DNA from: a virus | Taxonomy: Duplodnaviria; Caudoviricetes | IMG/VR virus record: IMGVR_UViG_3300008085_000084 | Coordinates: 1-32,644 of that record | Length of the DNA stretch: 32,644 nt | Reading direction: 5' to 3' (one strand) | In this document: positions 11,723-24,033 of the stretch, piece by piece | Layout: every line of letters starts with the position of its first letter | Numbering within the stretch: the first letter of the stretch is position 1 | The notes under the pieces: model-generated | The model's database searches: none | Seen by the model: the letters and a program-made list of their open reading frames with translations, nothing else | Told to the model about the DNA's origin: nothing | Program-made: the position numbers and the translations under genes

Positions 11723-12698
11723 TTATCAACTATTGGAAGGTATTTCTCAATCACGATTAAAATTAATTGAGAAAAATCCTAGTGAATACAATAGTTTTAC
11801 ATACAATGATGAGAACAAAAGTAAAGCTATGATTCGTGGTTCTTTTGTTGATGAAATACTATTAACAAAAGATATTGATGCTTCTATGAGCAAATTTTTC
11901 AATCAAAATATTGTTTTAAATCGAGTTCCTAGTGATAAGGTACAATTGATTCTTAAAACATACGCTGATAGAGTAAATTTAGGACAAGAAGAATCAGATG
12001 ATGTATTATATGATATATCACAAGAAATAGGCTATCAATCTAATTGGAAGAAACAAACTGTATTAGATGCATTAATGAAAGATGGTGGAGATCAATATTA
12101 TATGAATCTATCATCAGGTAAATCTATTATATCAAGAGAAGAAAAAGAAAAGATATTTAATATAATTAGATATTTTCAATCTTCTAATGATATGATTCAA
12201 GATATACTATGTGATAGTTTATCTCAGTTTCATGTTCCTTATTTATCTGATTTTAAACATAATACAGGTAACTATAAGATTAAAGCTGAATTAGATATTC
12301 AATTAAATGATGCTATTTTTGATTTTAAAATCATTAATCAATCTCTTACAACATTCTTTTGGTCATACTTTATAGGCTTTAAATATTATGTACAAGCTGT
12401 ACATTATTTACAAGCAAGTAAAGCTGAAACATTTACTTTTGTTGTTTATTCAACAGTAGAACAACGTCATGCTTGTTTTACAGTAAGTAAAGTATGGATA
12501 CAAAGATGTATAGGTATATATGGTTTAGAACCTTTTGCTCAAGATGATAATTACTTTACTATAAAAAGTAGAGAATATATTACTTATAATGGTTTATTTA
12601 ATCGTTTAGCTAATCACATTGATATAGATAAATGGGATATGCCTTATGAGTATTATCTCAATGAATACAACATATTACCAATAGATACATGGATGTAA
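11709..12698 (+). CDS. PD-(D/E)xK exonuclease (exonuclease VIII / DUF3799-like)
   Basis: ISQSRLK, GSFVDEILL, KAELD...IFDFK and YYVQAVHY motifs; ATG at 11709 preferred over TTG at 11688. Confidence 0.75.
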   Translation: MAQLNYQLLEGISQSRLKLIEKNPSEYNSFTYNDENKSKAMIRGSFVDEILLTKDIDASMSKFFNQNIVLNRVPSDKVQLILKTYADRVNLGQEESDDVLYDISQEIGYQSNWKKQTVLDALMKDGGDQYYMNLSSGKSIISREEKEKIFNIIRYFQSSNDMIQDILCDSLSQFHVPYLSDFKHNTGNYKIKAELDIQLNDAIFDFKIINQSLTTFFWSYFIGFKYYVQAVHYLQASKAETFTFVVYSTVEQRHACFTVSKVWIQRCIGIYGLEPFAQDDNYFTIKSREYITYNGLFNRLANHIDIDKWDMPYEYYLNEYNILPIDTWM

Positions 12699-13363
12699 CT
12701 TCTTTAGTAGGTTCTTCTTGGAATAGTATATTACATGATGAATTTGATAAAGATTATATAAAAAGTTTAATGCAGTTTATTACTGAACAACGTAAAAAAG
12801 ATATAGTATATCCTTCTCGTAATGAAGTATTTACTGCATTTAAACTTACTCCTTATAATCAAGTTAAAGTAATTTTATTAGGTGAAGAACCCTATCACAA
12901 AGAAGGTTTATCACATGGTTTAGCTTATTCTTGTAAAGAAGAACTTGAAATATATCCTGCTACATTAAGAAATATCTTAATAGAAATTGAAAATGACTAT
13001 GAATGTTTTTTATATGATACGCATGATTTATCTTATTTAGCAAAACAAGGTGTATTATTACTTAATAGAATACTTACTGTAACTAATGGTCTTCCACTAT
13101 CTCATAAGGACAGAGGATGGGAGAGATTAATTATTAAAGTTGTTCAATTATTAAATAAAAAGAACAATCTTGTATTTTTATTGTGGGGTGAAAACAATTG
13201 GTTTTTAGAATCCTACATAGATCAAACTCGTCATTTAATACTAAAAACTTCTTCTCCCTCCCCTGCTTATATAGAACAAGGGTTTAAAGGAAATGGACAT
13301 TTTTGGAAAACAAATGATTATTTACTTAGTAACAATATAGAAGCTATACAATGGATACCATAA
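12689..13363 (+). CDS. ung: family 1 uracil-DNA glycosylase homologue with altered catalytic motifs
   Basis: VKVILLGEEPYH, HGLAYS, QGVLLLN..LTV, SHKDRGW, VFLLWG, SPSP and GF.G..HF..TN.YL motifs. Confidence 0.9.
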   Translation: MDVTSLVGSSWNSILHDEFDKDYIKSLMQFITEQRKKDIVYPSRNEVFTAFKLTPYNQVKVILLGEEPYHKEGLSHGLAYSCKEELEIYPATLRNILIEIENDYECFLYDTHDLSYLAKQGVLLLNRILTVTNGLPLSHKDRGWERLIIKVVQLLNKKNNLVFLLWGENNWFLESYIDQTRHLILKTSSPSPAYIEQGFKGNGHFWKTNDYLLSNNIEAIQWIP

Positions 13364-13617
13364 AATCACCTTATAGTTTAATAGATCAAGTTCTTCATAA
13401 AAAAGAAAAAGAATCTTCTCGATTAAGAAAATATGATGCTTGGACTATACCAGCAGAATATATAAGTGTATGTGATAAAATTGTTTATGTAACTGAAAAA
13501 GATACTTATACTATTTCATCTAAACTTGCTATGGAAGTAGGTTTAACACAAACTTTAAACAATGAACTTAAAATAATTATTCCAGTATTTTATTGGGATT
13601 TAAAGTCTGCACAATGA
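13351..13617 (+). CDS. hypothetical protein
   Basis: 88-aa ORF coupled to ung and rIIA. Confidence 0.65.
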   Translation: MDTIKSPYSLIDQVLHKKEKESSRLRKYDAWTIPAEYISVCDKIVYVTEKDTYTISSKLAMEVGLTQTLNNELKIIIPVFYWDLKSAQ

Positions 13618-15662
13618 AATTTGAAGTAGAAGAATTAGATATTGAATCTTCAAAACCTATAGAATCAAATGCTTATGCGTTTGATATTAAAGATATAGGT
13701 ATGGCTTTTCATGCATTTGTTAATTATAGTAATCCATTAGGCTCTTTTATTAGAGAAATAGCATCTAATGCATGGGATGCTAATGTTGAAAATGAGAAAT
13801 ATGATGAACCTATTATTATATCATATAAAGATAACCAATTACATTTTCAAGATAAAGGTATTGGTATATCTCCAGATAGAATGAGTAGTGTATTTCAATA
13901 TTTCTTTAAATCAACTAAAAGAAATACAAATGGTCAAATCGGAGCCTGGGGATTAGGAAGCAAAAGTCCGTTAGGTTATGTAGATACATCTTTTTCTTTA
14001 ATTACTGTATATGATAATAAAGAATATCATTATGTAATTACTAAAAAAGCAAGTGGTCCTACTATTGATTTAGTAGATACTATTGATGTACTAGATAAAC
14101 CTACAGGTACTACTGTAATTGTACCTATGAAACATGAACCACATGATGTAACTAATGAAATAAGAAAACAACTTATTTATTTTCATAATGTTTACTATAA
14201 TGGTTTAGGTTTAAATAATGAATATAAAATTGAAGAAGCAAATACATTTTTATATTCTAAAGAAGTAGGTTTACAAACATTACATTTAGCTTATGGACCA
14301 GTTATTTATCCTATTGATAGACAATTGTACATGAGTATAATTAAAGATGATTTTAATCATAATAATAAGATAAATGATGAAGAAACTAACTTATTAGAAA
14401 ATTTATTTAATATACCTATAGGATTAAAATTCGATATTGGTGAATTAGATGTTACTTGGAATAGAGAATCTGTTCAATTTAATGATAAATCAATAAATGC
14501 TATTAAATATAAATTGTTGTTATTGTTAAGTGAAATAAAATCTTATATTCCTACATTAACACCTGATTATTTAGAATCATTTTTAAATAATTCTTTAGAT
14601 AATAGTAATGAGTTTTATATTAAAAATCATATTATTAATAAATTGAATTTATATCCTTGTTTAACAACAAGATATTTTAGTTCTAATATCAATAATATTA
14701 ATAATTATAAAGACTATACTTATTCTGTATTTAGAAAAGGTAAAAATCATACTTATAAAGTAATTAAAGATATTGAATTAAAAGAATATCAAATAAAATA
14801 CTTTATTAATTATCATGGTAGTTTAATTAATATATTGAGTTATGAAGAATTTATTAAAAATTTAGAACGAAATATATATGCTAAAATATCTATTGAAAAA
14901 GTAGATAGTCAACAAGAAGTATATTTAAAAATAATATATAATTATTATATATGTACATTTAAATTAGCTAGTTCTTATGATTATCCTAAAACATCTCTTA
15001 AAACAGAAAGTGATGGTAGTTTAGCTTATGCTACTATTTCTTATAATGGACTTCATAGAAATAAAATAAACTCTCATAAATTAGTAGAAGATAAAATAAA
15101 AAGTATTATTCCTATTAATCAAAGATGGATTGTTTCAACTTATGCTAATAAAAAAGTAGCTATAGATTTTAATAATGAATTTAGCACTTCAAAATATAAA
15201 TATCAATTAGTATTTGTATCTCAAGAGAATTATGATTTCTTTTGTTCTTTACCAAGAGCAATTTCATTTGTAGAATTTATAGATAAGTTTATTCCACGTT
15301 TGATAAAACGAGAAACAGAAATATATGTATTAAGCCATTTTAATTATTCAGATTGGAATATGCTTAAATTTTTAGCTGATAAATTTGCTTATTTTAAAAT
15401 AATGCAAAATAAACTAAATTTAATTTCAAAATCTAAATATGATTTAAGATTAAAGCTTAGTTATAGTAGTTTAGATGAATCTATTTTAGATGAGTTTAAA
15501 TTATTAAAAAACACAATAGAAGAATTTAAAGAAAATGGTTCTTCTATTTTTAAACATATAAGAGATTTAACTGAATTTCTAAAAGATCCTATATCAATAG
15601 ATTATGTTAAAAATCTTAAAAATCCTTTATTAACATATAAACTTAATCTTAAAAAAGAATGA
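13614..15662 (+). CDS. rIIA: rIIA-like protein (N-terminal GHKL/HATPase domain)
   Basis: YSNP..SFIREIASNAWDA, D.GIGIS, STKR, GAWGLGSKSP, GTTV and FDIGELDVTWNRE motifs; start at ATG 13614 (ATGA overlap). Confidence 0.85.
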   Translation: MKFEVEELDIESSKPIESNAYAFDIKDIGMAFHAFVNYSNPLGSFIREIASNAWDANVENEKYDEPIIISYKDNQLHFQDKGIGISPDRMSSVFQYFFKSTKRNTNGQIGAWGLGSKSPLGYVDTSFSLITVYDNKEYHYVITKKASGPTIDLVDTIDVLDKPTGTTVIVPMKHEPHDVTNEIRKQLIYFHNVYYNGLGLNNEYKIEEANTFLYSKEVGLQTLHLAYGPVIYPIDRQLYMSIIKDDFNHNNKINDEETNLLENLFNIPIGLKFDIGELDVTWNRESVQFNDKSINAIKYKLLLLLSEIKSYIPTLTPDYLESFLNNSLDNSNEFYIKNHIINKLNLYPCLTTRYFSSNINNINNYKDYTYSVFRKGKNHTYKVIKDIELKEYQIKYFINYHGSLINILSYEEFIKNLERNIYAKISIEKVDSQQEVYLKIIYNYYICTFKLASSYDYPKTSLKTESDGSLAYATISYNGLHRNKINSHKLVEDKIKSIIPINQRWIVSTYANKKVAIDFNNEFSTSKYKYQLVFVSQENYDFFCSLPRAISFVEFIDKFIPRLIKRETEIYVLSHFNYSDWNMLKFLADKFAYFKIMQNKLNLISKSKYDLRLKLSYSSLDESILDEFKLLKNTIEEFKENGSSIFKHIRDLTEFLKDPISIDYVKNLKNPLLTYKLNLKKE

Positions 15663-16855
15663 GTGTATTTTATCAATATAATAAAAATCTTCTTACTGTA
15701 ATTATTAATGGTAAACATCATAGATATGAAGAAGAAGAAAAAGTTAGTGTACTTCTTCCTTATTGTAGAGAATACGATAATGAAAAAGATGTAGCTAAAA
15801 AGAAAGAATTAGAAAAACAATTACAATTAGTTCTTAATTATGGAGATCAAATGCATCTTCATGGTGTAGAAGGCTTAATTGTTAAAAACGGTTCTTTTTA
15901 TTTAGAAAATGTACCTGTACCTATCCCTAAACAATTAGTTCGTAAACTAAATGATTTAGTAGAATTTCCTAATCGTATTGAATCATTAAAACGATTTTGG
16001 TTATTGTGTATGGCTAATCCAGACCCTATTGCTAGATATGGATTCTATAATTATGTAGAAACATTTGGTGTACCTATTAGTGAAAATGGTTATGCTATTA
16101 TGTATAAACAAGTTGAAAGAGTTCAAAAGAAACATTTCTTTGATGAATTAGATTCTGAAATTCAAGAAATGGTTGATTTTAAATTACAACAATATGGTAT
16201 CATTGAATCACCTAAATCTATTGTAGATAAAGATGTATTAAAACCATTATTACATACTTGTATTTATAGTGATCCAAATGGTGTATTAGAATTTGGTGAT
16301 ATTCAACAAGTAAAAAGTTCTACTAATTTAACAGCTGGATTTAATTTTCAACGTTTATTAGATAGAAATATTACTATTGCTGAATCACCTGATTATAAAC
16401 CATTTTATAAAGGTGGTGTATATGGTAATGATATTTATTTAGGTAAACCTGTTATAATGCCTAGAGGTGAAGCAGATTCTAATTCTAAAAATGATTGTTC
16501 TGTTGGGTTACACGTTGGTTCAAATTCCTATGTGAAAAAATTCTATAATGATTCACCCAATTCTGTTGTATTAGCTTGTTTAATTAATCCAATGAATGTT
16601 GTTGCTATTCCTGATTATGATCATTCTAAAATGAGAGTATCAGAATATTATCCTTATGCTGAAATAGCTAAAGATGAAAACAATAATTGGTTTGAAATTG
16701 AATCTGCTTATACAGAGAACAATTATTTGAATTATGAAGTAGATTTATTAGAAACTACTAAAAAGCAATTGAAGAAAACTCATATTGCTATGGATACAAA
16801 TAACGATGAGTTTATTGATTTATTAATAAAATCTCGTAAACAATTAATTAGTTAA
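15659..16855 (+). CDS. rIIB: rIIB-like protein
   Basis: Follows rIIA; FW..CMANP, I.ENG....YK, MPR...D......CSVGLHVGS..Y, INPMNVVAIP.YD.SKMRV motifs. Confidence 0.88.
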   Translation: MSVFYQYNKNLLTVIINGKHHRYEEEEKVSVLLPYCREYDNEKDVAKKKELEKQLQLVLNYGDQMHLHGVEGLIVKNGSFYLENVPVPIPKQLVRKLNDLVEFPNRIESLKRFWLLCMANPDPIARYGFYNYVETFGVPISENGYAIMYKQVERVQKKHFFDELDSEIQEMVDFKLQQYGIIESPKSIVDKDVLKPLLHTCIYSDPNGVLEFGDIQQVKSSTNLTAGFNFQRLLDRNITIAESPDYKPFYKGGVYGNDIYLGKPVIMPRGEADSNSKNDCSVGLHVGSNSYVKKFYNDSPNSVVLACLINPMNVVAIPDYDHSKMRVSEYYPYAEIAKDENNNWFEIESAYTENNYLNYEVDLLETTKKQLKKTHIAMDTNNDEFIDLLIKSRKQLIS

Positions 16856-16861
16856 TTAATT

Positions 16862-16898
16862 AATCTCTCTCTATTAATTTAGAGAGAGATTTTTATTT
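16862..16898 (+). terminator. intrinsic terminator
   Basis: 12-bp perfect stem AATCTCTCTCTA / TAGAGAGAGATT followed by a T-rich tract, right after the rIIB stop. Confidence 0.8.
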
Positions 16899-16910
16899 AT
16901 ATATAAGTTT

Positions 16911-17186
16911 ATGAATACAATAAAACGTATTGATTATAAAATTACTACTTGGGTAAGAGTATCAATAAATGATGAGAGTTTTAAAGAAGATAAATCTTTA
17001 AAACAAAAAATATTAAATGAAATAAATAATGGATTACATCCTGTTGATTTACCTAGCGTTTTTCCAGAAGTTAATTTTAATTTTGAAACAATGTTAGATT
17101 GTGAAGAAAACTTAACTACTGAAGAAAATGGTTATCCTGTTATTGAAGTATATGATAATGAAAATAATATAATTTTATCAAAATGA
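16911..17186 (+). CDS. hypothetical protein
   Basis: 91-aa ORF, ATGA-coupled to the next gene. Confidence 0.65.
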   Translation: MNTIKRIDYKITTWVRVSINDESFKEDKSLKQKILNEINNGLHPVDLPSVFPEVNFNFETMLDCEENLTTEENGYPVIEVYDNENNIILSK

Positions 17187-17383
17187 AAAAAACAGCAGAA
17201 ATAGGTATAGCATTATTAGCTTTATGTAATTTAATAATACTTTTAACAAAAGTATGGATTATAGTAGAATTTATATTATATGTATTTAAAGATAACCCTT
17301 TTAATTGGTTGAGTATTACTACACTTGTAATATTTATATTACTAAGTTTTATTATTAAAAAATTTATAGAAAATAATTTATGA
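17183..17383 (+). CDS. small membrane protein (two predicted TM helices)
   Basis: 66 aa with two long hydrophobic stretches. Confidence 0.6.
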   Translation: MKKTAEIGIALLALCNLIILLTKVWIIVEFILYVFKDNPFNWLSITTLVIFILLSFIIKKFIENNL

Positions 17384-17907
17384 TACTAAGTGATAAACAA
17401 ATATTAGAAAGAATAGAAAAAGGTGATATTGTATTATCACCTTTTGATAAAGATAGCTTAGGTTCTAATTCGTATGATGTTAGACTAAGTGAATATGTTA
17501 GTGAATACAATAATGATTTATTAGATGCTAAAAAAGATAATACTATACATACTCGTAAATTTAATGAGTTGATACTATTACCTAATAAATTATATTTAAT
17601 GTCAACATTAGAATATACTGAATCAAGAAATGTAGTTCCTGTTATCTCAGGTAAATCATCTATTGGTAGATTAGGTATTAATGTTCATGTTACAGCAGGT
17701 TTTGGAGACAATGGATTTTGTGGTCATTGGACATTAGAAATTTTTGTATTACAACCTGTTAGAGTATATGCTGGTATGAAAATAGGTCAATTATATTGGT
17801 ATGAGACAGGAGAATGTGAACAATCTTATGATAAAAAAGAAACTTCTAAATATAATGATCAACCTGAATTACCACAAGGTAGCAGAATGTTTAAGAATTT
17901 TATTTAA
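17380..17907 (+). CDS. dcd: dCTP deaminase
   Basis: MILSD, NSYDVRL, GKSSIGRLG, TAGFGDNGFCGHWTLE, GMKIGQL and KY..Q motifs. Confidence 0.92.
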   Translation: MILSDKQILERIEKGDIVLSPFDKDSLGSNSYDVRLSEYVSEYNNDLLDAKKDNTIHTRKFNELILLPNKLYLMSTLEYTESRNVVPVISGKSSIGRLGINVHVTAGFGDNGFCGHWTLEIFVLQPVRVYAGMKIGQLYWYETGECEQSYDKKETSKYNDQPELPQGSRMFKNFI

Positions 17908-17912
17908 TAATT

Positions 17913-18092
17913 ATGGAAAACCCTGAATATATAATAATACTAGATTATGAATCTGGTATTACTCATATAAGACGATATAAAGAGTTTGTTAAAGAAAATG
18001 ATATAAAAGATATTATATCTTATATGGAAGAAAATTATCCTAATAAAAATGTTAGCTGGATGATTAGTAATAATTTATTGATGTCAATATAA
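17913..18092 (+). CDS. small hypothetical protein (59 aa, not in ORF track)
   Basis: MENPEYIIILDYESGITHIRRY...VSWMISNNLLMSI*; fills the gap after dcd exactly. Confidence 0.6.
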   Translation: MENPEYIIILDYESGITHIRRYKEFVKENDIKDIISYMEENYPNKNVSWMISNNLLMSI

Positions 18093-18098
18093 ACTAAT

Positions 18099-18170
18099 AA
18101 AGAAGGACTCAATACTACAAAGCGCATTACTAGTTGAATAACATGGAGATACACTCCAGAGTCCTTCTTT
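18099..18170 (+). ncRNA. candidate structured RNA element (multi-stem)
   Basis: Perfect 12-bp closing stem AAAGAAGGACTC / GAGTCCTTCTTT enclosing 48 nt that include the hairpin TGGAG-ATACA-CTCCA; intergenic if the next gene starts at 18188. Confidence 0.4.
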
Positions 18171-18187
18171 TATTTAAAATAAACAAT

Positions 18188-18502
18188 ATGAATAAGAATA
18201 TACACATACTACCAGATGAAAATGGTTGTCAAAATAGAAAACGTATTTTGGTAGAATTAAAAAAAACACTTGAAGAAGCCTCTGAAAATTACTTTCGTTC
18301 AAAAGAATGGATGCAAAATAGTGCATCAGAATGGGTTCAAACAACCTTTAAAGCAGGTGCAAAATATCAAGCTGAACTAATGTATAGTGAAGAAGAAGTT
18401 AAAGAAATAGCTATTAAGTTTTTTCATCATTGGTACAATGTTAAAGGAAACACCCCCGAAGAAGCTTTTGATAAATGGTTTGAACAATTTAAAAAGAAAT
18501 AA
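18188..18502 (+). CDS. hypothetical protein
   Basis: ATG at 18188 (MNKNIHILP) preferred over TTG at 18134; TLEEAS...FKAGAKYQAELMYSEEEV...KWFEQFKKK. Confidence 0.65.
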   Translation: MNKNIHILPDENGCQNRKRILVELKKTLEEASENYFRSKEWMQNSASEWVQTTFKAGAKYQAELMYSEEEVKEIAIKFFHHWYNVKGNTPEEAFDKWFEQFKKK

Positions 18503-18504
18503 TT

Positions 18505-18726
18505 ATGAAATTATATACCGAAGAACAACTGTTTGACATCTGTCAATCGGTAGCAGAGAAGATGTGTGCTAATGCTCTACCAGAAGAAGTTATAATCGAG
18601 AATTGTAAATATTACGGACATTCAAAAATTAAAATAGACATTGAAACCATTAATTCTTTAATGGATGACGATAACATTGATGTTATAAACGTAGCATTAT
18701 GTTCATATAAAATACATCATACTTAA
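18505..18726 (+). CDS. hypothetical protein
   Basis: 73-aa ORF starting MKLYTEEQL. Confidence 0.55.
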   Translation: MKLYTEEQLFDICQSVAEKMCANALPEEVIIENCKYYGHSKIKIDIETINSLMDDDNIDVINVALCSYKIHHT

Positions 18727-18754
18727 CTTAGACAAAAAATAAACTTAATGATAT

Positions 18755-18811
18755 GAAAAATGTTGATTTGAAAAAACGTCACCCCTGCATCTTGCTAAAC
18801 CGCTGTTATGT
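18755..18811 (+). repeat. attC-like element, right half only (E0)
   Basis: TTGCTAAACCGCTGTTAT (18792-18809) is 16/18 identical to TTGCCAAACTGCTGTTAT (20132-20149); ends in core GTTATGT at 18805. Left boundary approximate. Confidence 0.6.
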
Positions 18812-18852
18812 GCTGGGCGGGTTATCAGCACTAAATTTAATTTAAAAACGAA

Positions 18853-19023
18853 ATGAATACAGAAACTTGCAAAAGATGTAAAGGTAACGGCTACTATGAA
18901 GCATTAGTTAGCCAACACGATGATGAAAAAGAAACCGTTAAATGCGAAAAGTGTAATGGTAAAGGAACTGTTTGTCAAATGACCGAAAAAGAAGAAAATG
19001 ATTATTGGGAGGACTATCGGTAG
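18853..19023 (+). CDS. small zinc-finger protein with two DnaJ-type CxxCxGxG repeats (56 aa, not in ORF track)
   Basis: MNTETCKRCKGNGYYEALVSQHDDEKETVKCEKCNGKGTVCQMTEKEENDYWEDYR*; stop lies directly before the cassette end. Confidence 0.8.
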   Translation: MNTETCKRCKGNGYYEALVSQHDDEKETVKCEKCNGKGTVCQMTEKEENDYWEDYR

Positions 19024-19029
19024 TCTTGT

Positions 19030-19162
19030 ACATAAGATTTTGCATTTTGCAGAAGTGCGAAATTACGAAGAACAAATTTTCAATTTAACAACAAAATTAT
19101 GAGCGAAGAACAGAACATCAATAAACCACAAGACCCCTCATTTTTGCAAGGTGCCGCTAGGC
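19030..19162 (+). repeat. complete attC-like element (E1, 133 bp)
   Basis: ACATAAG ... GCTAGGC (degenerate versions of RYYYAAC/GTTRRRY); 16-bp arms 19042-19057 and 19139-19154 pair fully on the top strand with four G-T pairs. Confidence 0.7.
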
Positions 19163-19308
19163 GTAGTTTTAATTGGTTAAGCGACCTTATGACTGCCCAA
19201 TGCCCAAGATGCGAATTAGGTAGAGTTTCGCACGACCGTTCAGAACCGCATGGTTGGACAACAATTGAAGTTTATAAATGCAATAGATGTAATACGGAGT
19301 TTGTATAA
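19099..19308 (+). CDS. small zinc-ribbon protein (CPRC...CNRC)
   Basis: Two CxxC pairs; start codon and first ~19 codons lie inside element E1; stop directly before TTACGCCTAAC. Confidence 0.7.
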   Translation: MSEEQNINKPQDPSFLQGAARRSFNWLSDLMTAQCPRCELGRVSHDRSEPHGWTTIEVYKCNRCNTEFV

Positions 19309-19314
19309 AATTAC

Positions 19315-19447
19315 GCCTAACGTGTTTTCGCTTGCCGTCAGGTGGGGCAATCGAAGCACTAAGCTGCCGATAACCACCGAACTTTAATAGAATTACAAAC
19401 CTTGAAGCTACCATCGAACCTGCCATTACGCAAAATGGCTGTTATCG
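19315..19447 (+). repeat. attC-like element (E2, 133 bp, arms apparently chimeric)
   Basis: Starts with a perfect RYYYAAC (GCCTAAC) and ends GCT-GTTATCG; same length and internal ~18-nt periodicity as E1. Confidence 0.7.
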
Positions 19448-19473
19448 GTAGTGCTTCTACAAATCTTAAAAAT

Positions 19474-19698
19474 ATGTGGTCTTTAAAACCAACAAACAAA
19501 AAACCAATCGAAGTGAAGCAAATTGTATTTGATAAGGTTGCTGGGGTATTTGATTACCCAAAAAATATTAGAGTGCCAAACGTTGGCGAATATGTTTGGT
19601 TTAGTATGGAGAAACAAGGAAATGTTCTTTCAGTTAAAAATAAACTTGAAAAGGGTTTTTTTGTAACGACAATTCGTGTAGGTGAAATCAATTCATAA
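19474..19698 (+). CDS. hypothetical protein (cassette payload)
   Basis: MWSLKPTNKK...IRVPNVGEYVWF...; the frame is also open upstream into E2 (ATG 19435, TTG 19402). Confidence 0.65.
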   Translation: MWSLKPTNKKPIEVKQIVFDKVAGVFDYPKNIRVPNVGEYVWFSMEKQGNVLSVKNKLEKGFFVTTIRVGEINS

Positions 19699-19755
19699 TG
19701 GTGTTATAGAAACTTATGATGGTAAAAAATACATTATAAAATTAGAAAAAATAAA

Positions 19756-20073
19756 ATGAATAGACATTATGTAAGTTTTGAACAAAGTGAATTACTTAAA
19801 GAAAAAGGTTGTCCTTATGATAAAAAAGAATATCTTGAAAGACCTAAAGTATATGAAGTAATTGAATGGATTTTTCAAAAGTATAATTATTCTATTGAAG
19901 TGGAATTAAATATACCAGAATCAAGAAAATATGACGATTGTTATGTTTTTAACAGTATGGTGAAAGGTTTTGAGAACTATAAGTTAGCAATACTTTATAA
20001 GTCTAAAGATTTCCCTAATAGGCAAAAAGCTTATTTAGACGCAATAAACTATGTATTAGAGAAGTTAGTATGA
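19756..20073 (+). CDS. hypothetical protein
   Basis: 105 aa; YVSFEQSELLKEKG...P..YEVIEW...KYN motif pattern. Confidence 0.7.
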   Translation: MNRHYVSFEQSELLKEKGCPYDKKEYLERPKVYEVIEWIFQKYNYSIEVELNIPESRKYDDCYVFNSMVKGFENYKLAILYKSKDFPNRQKAYLDAINYVLEKLV

Positions 20074-20381
20074 AACAAAAATTTCTACCTGCACAAATTT
20101 AATTATTAACCGAGAAGTATCTGTAGCTATTTTGCCAAACTGCTGTTATAACCAGTGCTTTACCTTGCCCTTTTTGTGGGGAAAAACCGAAAGTAGATAA
20201 AAGCTATATGCCATCTGAGGTCGAAATAAGTTGTGTAAACCCTAATTGCCATGCAAAACCAAGTGTTTATGAAAGCGTACAATGTGTCGAAAATAAAGGC
20301 GATACTGTAACTTATTCTCCAATGTTTGAGTGACATTGGCAAAGTATCCTTGATAAGTGGAATACTTGGCATTGTTTATAA
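20070..20381 (+). pseudogene. Lar-like (restriction alleviation) zinc-finger pseudogene
   Basis: Single frame MKQKFLPAQI*LLTEKYL*LFCQTAVITSALPCPFCGEKP...ISCVNPNC...MFE*HWQSILDKWNTWHCL*; LPCPFCG and terminal KWN match the Lar family; internal stops at 20100, 20124 and 20331. Confidence 0.72.
20085..20151 (+). repeat. attC-like element, right half (E3)
   Basis: TTGCCAAACTGCT-GTTATAA with core GTT at 20145; matches the E0 and E2 right ends. Left boundary approximate. Confidence 0.6.
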
Positions 20382-20465
20382 CGTTCCTCGTGTATGCGTA
20401 GGGCGAATAATTAACAAAAAATTTAATTTAAAAACAAACATTAATAAAATAACAGAAGATTTAAA
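20376..20465 (+). repeat. attC-like element, left half (E4)
   Basis: TTATAAC-GTTCCTCGTGTATGCGTAGGGCG followed by periodic A-rich units; no right arm found. Right boundary approximate. Confidence 0.55.
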
Positions 20466-20479
20466 TATGGAGTAATAGT

Positions 20480-20779
20480 ATGATTAAAACAGAAAACTTA
20501 AAAGAACTTGCACGTTTGCAAGAAATCACTAAAGTAAATTTAAAAGATGGCATAATACATAAATGTAAGTTATATTCAAATGTATTAGAATTTTATTTGT
20601 CAACAGACAAAGAAGGATACTTTCTAAATCACAAAATGAAAGATGATGTATTTCAAGATAACTCGTTAAAGCAAATACTTTCTTTTATTGAAGAAAGATA
20701 TAATGAAGATTTAGAAAAGCGTGTAGAAGCAGCTAAAAAAGCAGTATGGAATGATATAGCAGAAAATAGTGGTATATAA
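20480..20779 (+). CDS. hypothetical protein
   Basis: 99-aa ORF. Confidence 0.6.
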   Translation: MIKTENLKELARLQEITKVNLKDGIIHKCKLYSNVLEFYLSTDKEGYFLNHKMKDDVFQDNSLKQILSFIEERYNEDLEKRVEAAKKAVWNDIAENSGI

Positions 20780-20782
20780 ATT

Positions 20783-21595
20783 ATGAGTCGTTATTTTATA
20801 GATACTGAATTTTTAGAAGGTTCTCAAAAAGAACCTTTTCCTATTTCTTTATTCAGAAAAAAAACAAAACCAACTATTGATTTAATATCCATCGCTTTGG
20901 TTTCAGAAGATAATCGTGAATATTATGCTATTTCTAAAGACTTCAATTTAAAAGAAGCTTGGAATAGACATGATATTAAACGAACAAAAACAGAAAACAA
21001 CCCATACAAAGATTATTGGATTCGTGAAAATGTTCTTAAATCTATATGGAGAGAGTTAAGAGTAAAGGAAGTAGAAGAGTACAATATAGCTAAAAATAGG
21101 AATGTTGTATTAGATTTTCCAACGTATATTTTTACCTATGAATCACTTAAAAGATTAATTAATAAATACGGTAAAACCAATAAACAAATAGTTCAAGAAA
21201 TTAAAGACTTTGTAGCGGAAAAAGATAGAACATCTACAACTATTTTTAAATATAAAACAGAATACAAATTTAAAGACGTTCAATTTTACGGTTATTATGC
21301 CGATTATGATTGGGTAGCTTTTTGTTGGTTATTTGGTAAAATGATTGACTTGCCTAATGGTTTTCCTATGTTTGCTTTTGATTTAAAACAAACTATGGAT
21401 GAAAAAGTAATGCTATTAATGGAAAAAGAAAATCAATCAAGAATATTCCATAAAATAAAATTATTTTCTTTTGATGAAGCATTAGAATCTTTTAAAACAA
21501 GAAAAGATTATCCTAAACAAACTAACGAACACAATGCACTTAGTGATAGTAGATTTGTAAGAGATTTGTATTATTTTTTAAATAATAAAACATAG
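20783..21595 (+). CDS. DEDDh 3'-5' exonuclease (Rv2179c/DUF5051-like exoribonuclease)
   Basis: YFIDTEF, LISIALV, YADYDWV, DLKQ and HNALSD motifs. Confidence 0.85.
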   Translation: MSRYFIDTEFLEGSQKEPFPISLFRKKTKPTIDLISIALVSEDNREYYAISKDFNLKEAWNRHDIKRTKTENNPYKDYWIRENVLKSIWRELRVKEVEEYNIAKNRNVVLDFPTYIFTYESLKRLINKYGKTNKQIVQEIKDFVAEKDRTSTTIFKYKTEYKFKDVQFYGYYADYDWVAFCWLFGKMIDLPNGFPMFAFDLKQTMDEKVMLLMEKENQSRIFHKIKLFSFDEALESFKTRKDYPKQTNEHNALSDSRFVRDLYYFLNNKT

Positions 21596-21658
21596 AAAAA
21601 CTAGAAACCAATGTCTGTTGGAATAAACAATTACATGAATTTTAAAAAAAACTGTAAT

Positions 21659-22015
21659 ATGAAACTACAAATAATTGAAACACCTGAATATTACTTAGCT
21701 GTTTCTGATGAAAAGATTGAAGATGGTAAAACGTTTGTTACAAAAGATGGTGTAGTTCATACTCTTTATGGTTATAATTATGGAGATAAAGTAGTTGTAA
21801 CCTACAAACTAAAAGACAATTCAAATGATATTATCCAAACTCTCAAACAACCTAAAACACCTAAATGGTTTATTGCTGAAATGGAACTTTGTAATAATTG
21901 TATAAATCATCAAGGACAACATTTAAGTTCTGATTGCTGTCATAATTATAAACTTAAAACCACAACAAACTCAGAAGGTAAAGAAGTCTTAGTAGGAGAA
22001 TATATATATGAGTAA
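21659..22015 (+). CDS. hypothetical protein with a Cys/His cluster
   Basis: ORF track 21611..22015; ATG at 21659 (MKLQIIETPEY) is plausible; contains CNNC...H...CCH. Confidence 0.6.
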   Translation: MKLQIIETPEYYLAVSDEKIEDGKTFVTKDGVVHTLYGYNYGDKVVVTYKLKDNSNDIIQTLKQPKTPKWFIAEMELCNNCINHQGQHLSSDCCHNYKLKTTTNSEGKEVLVGEYIYE

Positions 22016-23789
22016 AGTACCAAAAAAAATATTTATGAACAATAAAATTGAATTATTAGGATGGTATGGAGGAGATGAAGCAATTGCTTGTTCAGCTTGG
22101 ACAAGTACAAATCGTGATTTGACTCCAGAAAAACGTGAACGTATTCCAAGTTTATTAAAACAATTATGGAGTGCAGAACCTGTACCTCATGGTAGTCCAT
22201 TTGAAAAAGGTATTGTACACTTTCTAGTAGATACTGATATAGCTAGTCATATACATCTTCTAAAACACAGAATTAGCTCTATTAATGCCGAATGTATTAC
22301 TGGAGATACTAAAATAACATTTGTTAATACTAATAATGTAGCATCAGCAAAATTAGCAAAAACTGTAAAAGAGCTTTATGATAGTTGGAATAATGGTAGA
22401 AAACATCAAAACACCGAAGCTGATAAATTATATAATCAAAAAAGAATAAAAAATATGAAGCTTAGGGTTCTTGATGAAAAAACAGGATTATTTACAACTT
22501 CTCATATAAAAGATGTTTGGTATAAAGGTAAACAAGATATTTACCAAATTACATTATGTAACGGCAAGAAAATAAAATGTACTGATAATCATTTTATTTG
22601 GACTAAAGATGGGTATAAAACCATTTCAAACGGATTGTCTTTAAATTCATTAGTTGGTTGTAATGGGATTAGTATTGAAGTACCTAATAAACCATGGACT
22701 TTTGAGTCTTTTTATTCAGAATCTTTAAATTATACTAGAAAAGAATTTGCAATAAAGTATAATCTTAAATATGAACTCGTTAAAAAATGGGGTTATATTT
22801 TTGATATATCATTTAAAAAAGATGAAAATAAAGATTTTAAAAAAGGATTGCAACCATGGAATAAAAATATTACAGGGTATAAAATTAATATAAAAAAAAG
22901 AAAACATAATCCTTTAAAAGGAGATAAATCACATTTTTGGAGAGGTGGAATTTCATCCGAAAGAGAATTGATAGGAACATGGGCTACTCAAAATGCTTTT
23001 AAAGTACACCAGAAATATAACTTTACTTGCCAAAAATGCGGATTATCATCAAAAAATCTACATGCTCATCACATAATTCCAGTTACTGCAGATATAACAA
23101 AAGCTTATGATTTTGAAAATTTAATCACAGTTTGTAAAAACTGTCATTATAAAATACATGAAACAGTAGAAAGTGAAATTGAGTTTGCTAAAGAAGTATT
23201 ATCTCAAAATTACGAAATAAAAATAATTGATTGGTATAATAATCCTAAAAGATTAAAGGGTAAATTAGCAGTTCATTATTCTCCTATAATTGATATTTCT
23301 TTTCTTGGTAAAGAAGATACATACGATATAGAAGTAGAAGGAAATAATAACAATTTTATAGCCAACGGAATAGTTGTTCATAACTCAGCTAGATATAAAG
23401 AGTTAAAAGAAGATAAGTTTTACCTTCCTGAAGATTGGAATGAAATTTATCCATCAGGTGATGGGTTTAAACTTGGTTTAGATTGGAAAGAAATTCTTGA
23501 AGATTATACTATTCAAGGTAATATTTTATATCATCAATGTTTAGAAGATTTAACACCTATTCTTGGTAGAAAAAGAGCTAAAGAATCAGCTAGATTCTTT
23601 AAAACTTATAATTCCCAAATACAAGCAGATATACTATTTAATATGAGATCATTTCATAATTTCTTAACTCAAAGAATGGATGAATATGCTCAATTAGAAA
23701 TAAGAATTATTGCTAAAGAGATGCTCGAACTTGTTAAAAATATTGAAGGTAATCCTTTTAAATATACACTTGAAGCATGGAGTTTTTAA
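22008..23789 (+). CDS. thyX: flavin-dependent thymidylate synthase ThyX, intein-containing precursor
   Basis: HGSPFE, split motif KHRISSINAE|SARY, ESARF and N.RSF.NF..QR....AQLEIR motifs. Confidence 0.92.
   Translation: MSKVPKKIFMNNKIELLGWYGGDEAIACSAWTSTNRDLTPEKRERIPSLLKQLWSAEPVPHGSPFEKGIVHFLVDTDIASHIHLLKHRISSINAECITGDTKITFVNTNNVASAKLAKTVKELYDSWNNGRKHQNTEADKLYNQKRIKNMKLRVLDEKTGLFTTSHIKDVWYKGKQDIYQITLCNGKKIKCTDNHFIWTKDGYKTISNGLSLNSLVGCNGISIEVPNKPWTFESFYSESLNYTRKEFAIKYNLKYELVKKWGYIFDISFKKDENKDFKKGLQPWNKNITGYKINIKKRKHNPLKGDKSHFWRGGISSERELIGTWATQNAFKVHQKYNFTCQKCGLSSKNLHAHHIIPVTADITKAYDFENLITVCKNCHYKIHETVESEIEFAKEVLSQNYEIKIIDWYNNPKRLKGKLAVHYSPIIDISFLGKEDTYDIEVEGNNNNFIANGIVVHNSARYKELKEDKFYLPEDWNEIYPSGDGFKLGLDWKEILEDYTIQGNILYHQCLEDLTPILGRKRAKESARFFKTYNSQIQADILFNMRSFHNFLTQRMDEYAQLEIRIIAKEMLELVKNIEGNPFKYTLEAWSF
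22293..23384 (+). mobile_element. intein (364 aa) with HNH homing endonuclease
   Basis: Block A CITGDTKI, block B CTDNHFIWT, block F DTYDIEV, block G VVHN followed by +1 Ser; internal CQKC...HAHHI...NLITVCKNCH..IH. Confidence 0.93.
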
Positions 23790-23790
23790 A

Positions 23791-24033
23791 ATGAATAGAG
23801 ATTATTATTTCTTTAGTAATGATATTTTATTTGAACAATATATAGATGAAACAATTTCATTAGAAGAATTAATTAAAAAACTAAATGAATCTACTGATTG
23901 GGAAGTTTATTGTGATTTAGATAAAGATAAAGTTAAAAGTTTAATGAAATTAACAGAACAATATAATCGTATTTATACTATAAATTTACAATTGTATATG
24001 TTATTTAACACTATTAAACGTAAACAAAAATAA
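23791..24033 (+). CDS. hypothetical protein
   Basis: ATG at 23791 (MNRDYYF), 1 nt after the thyX stop, preferred over the start at 23710. Confidence 0.6.
   Translation: MNRDYYFFSNDILFEQYIDETISLEELIKKLNESTDWEVYCDLDKDKVKSLMKLTEQYNRIYTINLQLYMLFNTIKRKQK

Follow-up and report, generated by a model that had tools for sequence, protein, structure and literature searches.

A 32.6-kb contig from the IMG/VR collection (record IMGVR_UViG_3300008085_000084, Caudoviricetes; all of its 32,644 nucleotides are called the window below) is estimated to be 25% complete and contains a block of small genes that an earlier note, made from the letters alone, had read as an integron-like gene-cassette array without an integrase. 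Our analysis agrees that the parts of this block belong, as units, to an integron-like cassette system shared by Bacteroidota and their phages, in which the two ends of a unit would pair in a circular form. We consider it probable that the array is a decayed, recombinase-less remnant of a phage-type cassette array, an explanation that as a whole includes a gene polarity reversed relative to integrons and recombination between hairpin arms.

All parts of the array lie on the plus strand; comparison loci are given L numbers. It opens with a right half-site (18753..18804), made up of a loop ATG at 18753 and a right arm (right-arm profile 28.7 bits) whose left arm is missing, no left-arm match being present upstream; the nearest intact arm is in L155 (20 of 24 positions). 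Cassette body 1 (18805..19036) consists of a non-coding leader and an open reading frame (ORF) for a 56-aa CxxC zinc-finger protein (18853-19023), has homologues in L067 and L289, and has a 3' core changed from AAC to AAG; its protein matches the DnaJ-type CXXCXGXG family below the cut-off. Next is E1 (19037..19155), a decayed hairpin site of complete length (119 nt), from which gene 2 (ORF 19099-19308) takes its ATG (19099) and its first 19 codons. The E1 fold is weak (z 0.2/-0.02), at -7.8 kcal/mol vs. -22.3 to -10.0 for the 5th to 95th percentile of intact sites of equal length. Cassette body 2 (19156..19321) has a 5' core changed from GTT to GCT, ends that are complementary at 9 of 11 positions, and a small zinc-ribbon-type ORF, the Atlas look-alikes of which are hypothetical proteins, mainly viral; no second full copy was found in viral contigs. 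Site E2 (19322..19440, 119 nt) is a chimera of non-pairing arms from different site types. Its left arm is identical to that of L076 at 24 of 24 positions and, unlike in the window, is matched by a complementary right arm in four of five other phage loci; its fold z of about -2 arises from internal pairing rather than from the cores.

Cassette body 3 (19441..19686, homologue in L062) is truncated at its 3' side, lacks an AAC end, and encodes a protein of no assigned family (ORF to 19698). It is followed by non-cassette DNA (19687..20073) with a G+C fraction (GC) of 0.244 and no site-profile match above the null. From its sequence, the open frame at 19682-19759 is likely the 3' remnant of a gene, fused to cassette 3, and behind it lies an AT-rich 105-aa gene of phage type (19756-20073). 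A second right half-site (20070..20144; right-arm profile 24.5 bits), from which the frame into gene 4 is blocked by stops, precedes cassette body 4 (20145..20382), a Lar-like restriction-alleviation gene that exceeds the PF14354 cut-off (28.9 vs. 28.6 bits) and is interrupted by a premature TGA at 20331-20333. This copy thus ends about 15 codons early, and on the long allele it has no in-frame upstream start. The array closes with a left half-site (20383..20450; left-arm profile 25.0 bits), comprising a left arm and an A-rich loop, which has no right-arm match downstream and runs into a phage gene at 20480-20779.

Every motif quoted in the earlier note was found where it had been placed, with unit starts at 18805, 19156 (GCT, not GTT), 19441, and 20145, and unit ends at 19036 (AAG, not AAC), 19321, and 20382. 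Its end complementarities (9/14, 9/11, and 12/14) were reproduced, as was the equal length of the two complete spacers, which is 119 nt, or 133 counting the 7-nt cores; equality is unremarkable in a family with a median of 115 nt and a 75th percentile of 118. Finer points fared less well. The “three C>T” changes reported for the end of unit 1 are two C>T and one C>G when compared with the intact homologue, and the AAC ends do not all sit right at a stop codon, as units 1 and 2 stop 13 nt earlier and unit 4 has its premature TGA. The motif said to be shared by right ends is good at 18793 and 20132, partial at 19441, and poor at 19156. The description of the region as GC-rich is right for both cassette blocks (0.369 for 18753-19700 and 0.345 for 20070-20440, vs. 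0.258 for the window) and wrong for the middle (0.244 for 19701-20069). Two of the cores in the window are mutated; cores of the RYYYAAC and GTTRRRY types are present in the consensus of the wider site family. An Rfam search returned no matches, a promoter scan was at chance level (11 vs. 11.7), and a repeat search of 16000-24000 gave weak pairs only.

End complementarity alone is weak evidence that these sites are real, with four GTT...AAC pairs at least 12/14 complementary and 100-400 nt apart in the window, only one of them in the array. That the sites exceed chance follows instead from family membership as judged by arm profiles. Position-weight matrices for the arms were trained on 313 hairpin sites of other phages, with 60 shuffled strands as the null. 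The four best right-arm matches in the window are at 19441, 18805, 20145, and 19156 (30.8, 28.7, 24.5, and 15.4 bits; null maximum 17.4), and the two best left-arm matches at 20382 and 19321 (25.0 and 21.1 bits; null maximum 14.8); the left-arm match at 19036 ranks only fourth, at 9.8 bits, under the null maximum. Five of the seven proposed sites therefore score above the best of the 60 shuffled strands, and by arm profiles the window contains two full-length sites and three half-sites. Across 215 units of the family, pre-selected for at least 5/7 complementarity at positions 4-10, the ends are complementary in 0.75-1.0 of cases at positions 1-10 and 0.69-0.83 at positions 12-15; without selection, at least 6/7 was reached by 215 of 313 sites vs. 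181 of 5000 control pairs. Complementarity falls to 0.04 at position 11 and is again about 0.8 at positions 12-14, a conserved outer-stem mismatch that may be a recognition feature.

Three of the cassettes (1, 3, and 4) recur in other phages at 82-90% identity, and the homology breaks at the cores. These comparisons used 5 of 54 loci in a first homologue set (48 others were unrelated contexts and one a near-identical contig), only L019 and L020 of 43 loci in a second, and those of a further 8 loci that are left when L285-L286 (this phage), L287-L288 (repeats of L067), and L291-L292 (unrelated) are set aside. Cassette 1 is 89-90% identical to the copies in L067 and L289, which keep intact complementary ends, with homology halting at both cores; each of the four copies that have a visible 3' flank (window, L067, L289, and L290) has a different hairpin behind it. 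For cassette 3 the match is L062, which shows 88% identity over 19473-19686 and retains the complementary AAC end. Cassette 4 has a counterpart in a 73-kb phage (L019), 82% identical exactly from the GTT core to the AAC core and different in both flanks; the L019 copy is an intact 96-aa ORF with its start inside its upstream hairpin. A decayed copy of cassette 4, 75% identical, is gp107 of Cellulophaga phage phi10:1. Breaks at a core were seen in L067, L289, L290, L019, and L062, in agreement with the expectation that the elements recur beside unrelated genes, and the most similar cassette copies found come from viral records. The leader of cassette 1 (18805-18855) is 95% identical to positions 2001-2056 of L003, a 635-kb phage, in which it stands before a different gene; leaders resemble hairpin loops, which may hint at the origin of new cassettes.

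The note had also proposed a check for a co-occurring tyrosine recombinase, and none was found in the 32.6-kb contig, about one quarter of the genome. One is present beside intact arrays elsewhere. In a 210-kb record with a copy of cassette 1, 19 hairpins in a row lead up to a tyrosine recombinase of 266 aa encoded on their strand. Among recombinase homologues (the best 80 of 93 viral and the best 80 of 247 prokaryotic loci), 57 of the 59 viral loci with at least 1.5 kb upstream have at least two hairpins upstream on the recombinase strand, as opposed to hairpins upstream on the opposite strand in 1 of 59 and downstream in 0 of 76. Among prokaryotic loci, such hairpins stand downstream on the other strand in 11 of 44 and upstream in 1 of 71. 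The 266-aa protein, the only one examined in this way, scores 169.7 against the TIGR02249 cut-off of 265, lacks about 48 residues at the VchIntI4 insertion, and splits into two pieces in the alignment to the VchIntI4 structure 2a3v (171->209 vs. 174->260). Its top profile match is NF040815 (190.3; cut-off 220), it falls below every Xer cut-off, and its top structure match is 4a8e. Recombinases with a cassette-end footprint also occur in L205, L220, and L224 (titled Nitrospirae, Leptospira, and unclassified bacterium), so on sequence grounds the cassette system is not confined to Bacteroidota. A recombinase supplied from elsewhere or by the host, as had been suggested, agrees with the existence of these homologues. 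The nearest of them, however, are encoded by phages, and in host arrays with sites of this family the genes run the opposite way, which makes another phage a likelier donor than a host.

The polarity of the phage arrays is the point on which we depart most from the earlier interpretation, which took the units to be classical cassettes opened at G^TT. In our reading the main crossover would be at the AAC at the 3' end of a gene, with each hairpin belonging to the gene downstream of it, and three independent lines point this way: the position of a docking motif, the linkage of hairpins to genes, and strand folding. A conserved motif that forms no hairpin (AAC followed by TATTATATATA) is found 39-56 nt ahead of the recombinase start, right against the AAC of a last gene that varies from locus to locus (45 distinct versions of the motif and 52 distinct gene ends at 67 distinct loci); none was detected in the window, where the best score was 11.3 vs. 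12.0 for the weakest training score. Linkage was examined in pairs of loci with at least 95% flank identity, after removal of one artefactual same-site pair and of any pair alike in both flanks. The hairpin was common to all eight pairs with the same downstream gene and to one of seven with the same upstream gene (Fisher p 0.0014), against 2.3% of random pairs. The AAC-5-stem strand folds better in 174 of 187 sites, by a mean of 2.3 kcal/mol (275 G.T vs. 25 C.A mismatches); in 170 of 192 viral units it is the strand that encodes the gene. Published work on integrons gives the recombining bottom strand as the more stable one, by 2.12 kcal/mol (PMC5027507). Linkage of a gene to its upstream hairpin also makes biological sense, because the hairpin often supplies the start codon: an ORF starts inside the upstream hairpin in 61 of 215 units, 43 of which read GTT as Val, and gene 2 of the window and the Lar-like gene of L019 do likewise. 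Arrays on host chromosomes use the same site family with genes in the classical orientation, which point away from the docking site in 15 of 19 units. The arms in the window score on the coding strand, which makes its array one of phage-type polarity.

Several observations weigh against this interpretation. Linkage of the upstream hairpin fades, being shared by 2 of 10 pairs at 85-95% identity and 16 of 61 below 85%, and copies of cassette 1 that are 95% identical (L067 and L289) carry different upstream hairpins; some slower exchange at the GTT side therefore also occurs. The linkage pairs are few and not phylogenetically independent, and the hairpin detector presupposes the asymmetry of 4-6 vs. 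0-2 nt. The recombinase is tied to these sites through neighborhood only, and with the contig about 25% complete, a recombinase may be encoded elsewhere in this phage. Finally, the natural deletion allele described below ends in or beside an 18-bp near-repeat that includes G^TT, so the breakpoint is not placeable and site-specific action may have been involved.

In the mechanism that we propose, each unit would be a DNA hairpin followed by its gene, inserted at a 3' AAC by the short tyrosine recombinase in other phages. The coding strand would fold and be cut at AA^C, circular intermediates would form, the recombinase would act on these sites, and exchange at the GTT side would be slower. The array would have been brought into the present phage and reshaped there by homologous or microhomology recombination between hairpin arms, possibly by way of a Sak4-like annealing protein that the phage encodes (7933-8625), producing the half-sites, the chimera, and the deletion allele. 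Its cargo (the Lar-like protein and the zinc fingers) would be accessory or counter-defence.

The condition of the array is consistent with such a history. No site in the window passes the hairpin test that intact family members pass, and folding found no end-to-end hairpin. Three of its outer joints are half-sites (lone right arms at 18753-18804 and 20070-20144, and a lone left arm at the end), two cores are mutated, cassette 3 is truncated, cassette 4 is interrupted by a stop, and a non-cassette gene lies inside the block. We infer homologous or microhomology recombination because the joints are in hairpin loops; insertion by an integrase would leave a full starting hairpin and host DNA after the last AAC. 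The proposal that the phage captures and shuffles genes at this locus is accordingly not borne out: with no intact hairpin, three half-sites, and a non-cassette gene inside, this is no working platform.

Natural variation was followed in assembled contigs of four runs, the RNA run X23 (0.05 of words) being left out. Two of the four (X5 and X20) contain a short allele that joins 18775 to 20132 with 15 other letters between them, removing 1,356 bp; it is minor in X5 (depth 3.3 vs. 7.96) and major in X20 (9.62 vs. about 4). Both ends are matching half-site arms, and the removed block includes non-cassette DNA, for which reasons homologous recombination is likelier than integrase action. The arm of the short allele is identical to the intact L155 arm over 22 nt, and its ATG at 18753 is in frame with the Lar-like gene 4 (51 nt without a stop, by hand count); these two features favor the short allele as the older state. 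Precise gain or loss at G^TT had been put forward as a check; the one natural indel seen, with its two half-site ends and its non-cassette content, does not show site-specific shuffling in this phage. No close relative with an empty site was found, queries with the flanking nuclease gene and the polymerase giving near-identical contigs or relatives of at most 46% identity. A joint from 18740 to 20418 in X20 (side of 33 nt) was considered as a cassette-free allele and set aside, as it could come from another organism. Just upstream of the array, four adjacent substitutions at 18654-18657 mark a second haplotype in X19 and X20. At 18473-18510 there is a 38-nt junction between the end of one small gene and the next start, of which contigs of X5 and X20 have two copies spaced 343 letters apart, and which X2 has with other flanks; it is possibly a second, unrelated repeat that serves to shuffle small phage genes.

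Other explanations account for parts of these results. The array could be a live substrate on which a recombinase acting in trans (from the host, a co-infecting phage, or the missing 75% of the genome) moved the 1,356-bp block, using a half-site as a secondary docking site. Both ends of the indel lie directly 5' of a GTT core, the arm left to cassette 4 is complete, the homology of cassettes 1 and 4 breaks on the GTT side, and recombinase homologues are common in phages and Bacteroidota. A hairpin is impossible at either end of the indel, however, the main crossover of the family is on the AAC side, and the block holds a truncated cassette, a gene remnant, and an AT-rich non-cassette gene, which together make this account unlikely. 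We give even less weight to a cluster of attC sites lacking an integron-integrase (CALIN) of classical polarity, with each gene followed by its attC and opened at G^TT, acquired from a Bacteroidota host. Such clusters have been published for lytic phages (PMC9892861), and the 15 of 19 host units whose genes point away from the docking site belong to the same site family; yet the coding-strand arm scores of the window, the different hairpins downstream of the four cassette 1 copies, and the viral origin of the closest cassette copies all speak for phage-type arrays, and the associated enzyme fails the IntI profile.

It is about as doubtful, and perhaps slightly more so, that the hairpins are translation-start or regulatory repeats independent of any recombinase, with genes shuffled by homologous recombination and the recombinase neighborhood incidental. 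The frequency of start codons in hairpins (61 of 215), chimeric sites in the window and in L084, the leader common to different genes (L003), and the Sak4-like protein would all suit such repeats, which nevertheless leave unexplained why homology stops at a core of 3-4 nt beyond which, on one side, the sequences are unrelated, why end complementarity is gene-specific, and why a fixed docking motif precedes the recombinase. Chance motifs or an assembly artefact are very improbable: 12/14 complementarity does arise four times in the window, but profile scores exceed all 60 null strands, and the arrangement is identical in the near-identical contig L004 (4 differences in 7.7 kb) and matched in a 3,420-nt contig of run X2 that spans the array. 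A decayed phage-type array thus remains the explanation that we prefer.

The system works like an integron and, by the defining features tested, is not a member of the classical family. Features that its family has in common with integrons are AAC/GTT cores, hairpin sites whose two strands differ in stability (in phages it is the coding strand that folds better), cassettes of one gene each whose ends are complementary, and, in phages, a docking site that forms no hairpin and lies next to a tyrosine recombinase whose transcription leads away from the array. It differs in its recombinase (266 aa, under the TIGR02249 cut-off, and without the roughly 48-residue VchIntI4 insertion), in phage genes that face the docking site behind a hairpin that often supplies the start codon, and in an unpaired spacer of 4-6 nt on one side and 0-2 on the other, where classical attC sites have about 5 and 6 nt. 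Neither an IntI with the insertion nor an attI was found in the window, a contig about 25% complete. The linkage of genes to upstream hairpins and the docking motif against the AAC end speak against a gene-then-attC order with a G^TT crossover on the coding strand in phage arrays; host arrays agree with the classical order in gene direction. Xer recombinases act at dif; the linked recombinase has its top matches among simple Xer-like and archaeal XerA tyrosine recombinases (NF040815 and 4a8e) and differs from them in sitting beside variable hairpin arrays. Cassette 4, for its part, is a Lar (PF14354) homologue by score, and the window copy appears from its sequence to be some 15 codons short.

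In the accessible text of the respective sources, cassettes facing the promoter are described as never observed in integrons (PMC5027507), the IntI insertion as essential for integron function (PMC8138268), and integrons as almost absent from Bacteroidetes (IntegronFinder 2.0 preprint, 10.1101/2022.02.28.482270). Closest to our case are the CALINs that Qi et al. (2023; PMC9892861) reported from lytic phages, among them Polaribacter phage P12002L; these are likewise attC-like clusters without an integrase, and the paper suggests that they were taken up by homologous or illegitimate recombination. As far as its accessible text goes, it treats the sites as ordinary attC and names neither a cognate recombinase nor reversed polarity. 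P12002L_attC1, there the sole one of six sites not recombined by IntI1, is a hairpin of the 40-nt class of the family, and its loop occurs in 49 of 402 family sites. On the coding strand, the published attC2 of P12002L (L284; 37259 and 29233 minus) looks like the end of a cassette with a non-hairpin motif behind it; this motif is present twice, after a different gene end each time, and resembles a docking site more than an attC. A search of the open-access literature, which covered neither subscription journals nor bioRxiv supplements, found no description of the insertion-less recombinase, the docking motif, or the reversed polarity.

The assignment of the contig to a crAss-like phage, also made in the earlier note, is supported by a 1372-aa ORF similar to gp66 of phi14:2, annotated as a virion RNA polymerase subunit (tblastn E 2e-16, 28% of the ORF). 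That search gave 88 records, mostly Bacteroides and Flavobacterium phages, and the ORF matches FpV-group proteins as well; another large ORF is similar to cr4_1. Genes for terminase, portal, and major capsid proteins were not recognized in the partial contig. Two candidate relatives, G001 and G002, were rejected as they have no match to the RNA polymerase, and their missing recombinase was not used. Other genes include a uracil-DNA glycosylase (12689-13363), an RIIA/RIIB-like pair (13593-16855), a dCTP deaminase (17380-17907), and a ThyX thymidylate synthase (22008-23789) split by an intein with an HNH endonuclease.

More broadly, and with somewhat less assurance than for the array itself, we lean toward the view that phages of Bacteroidota run a mirror-image integron. 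An insertion-less recombinase would cut coding-strand hairpins at AA^C, and the hairpin would serve as the translation start of the next gene. Lytic phages without the enzyme would trade pieces of arrays through the arms, counter-defence genes would spread by two routes, and hosts would use the same sites with genes reversed. The window is a poor specimen of the machinery and a good one of orphan-array decay, and the segregating 1,356-bp allele indicates that orphan arrays still vary in natural populations. With a hairpin-cassette system whose recombinase lacks the insertion and whose genes are reversed in phages and classical in hosts, one can test directly how integrons arose and what the insertion does; such a system may also explain much of the accessory-gene turnover in Bacteroidota phages.

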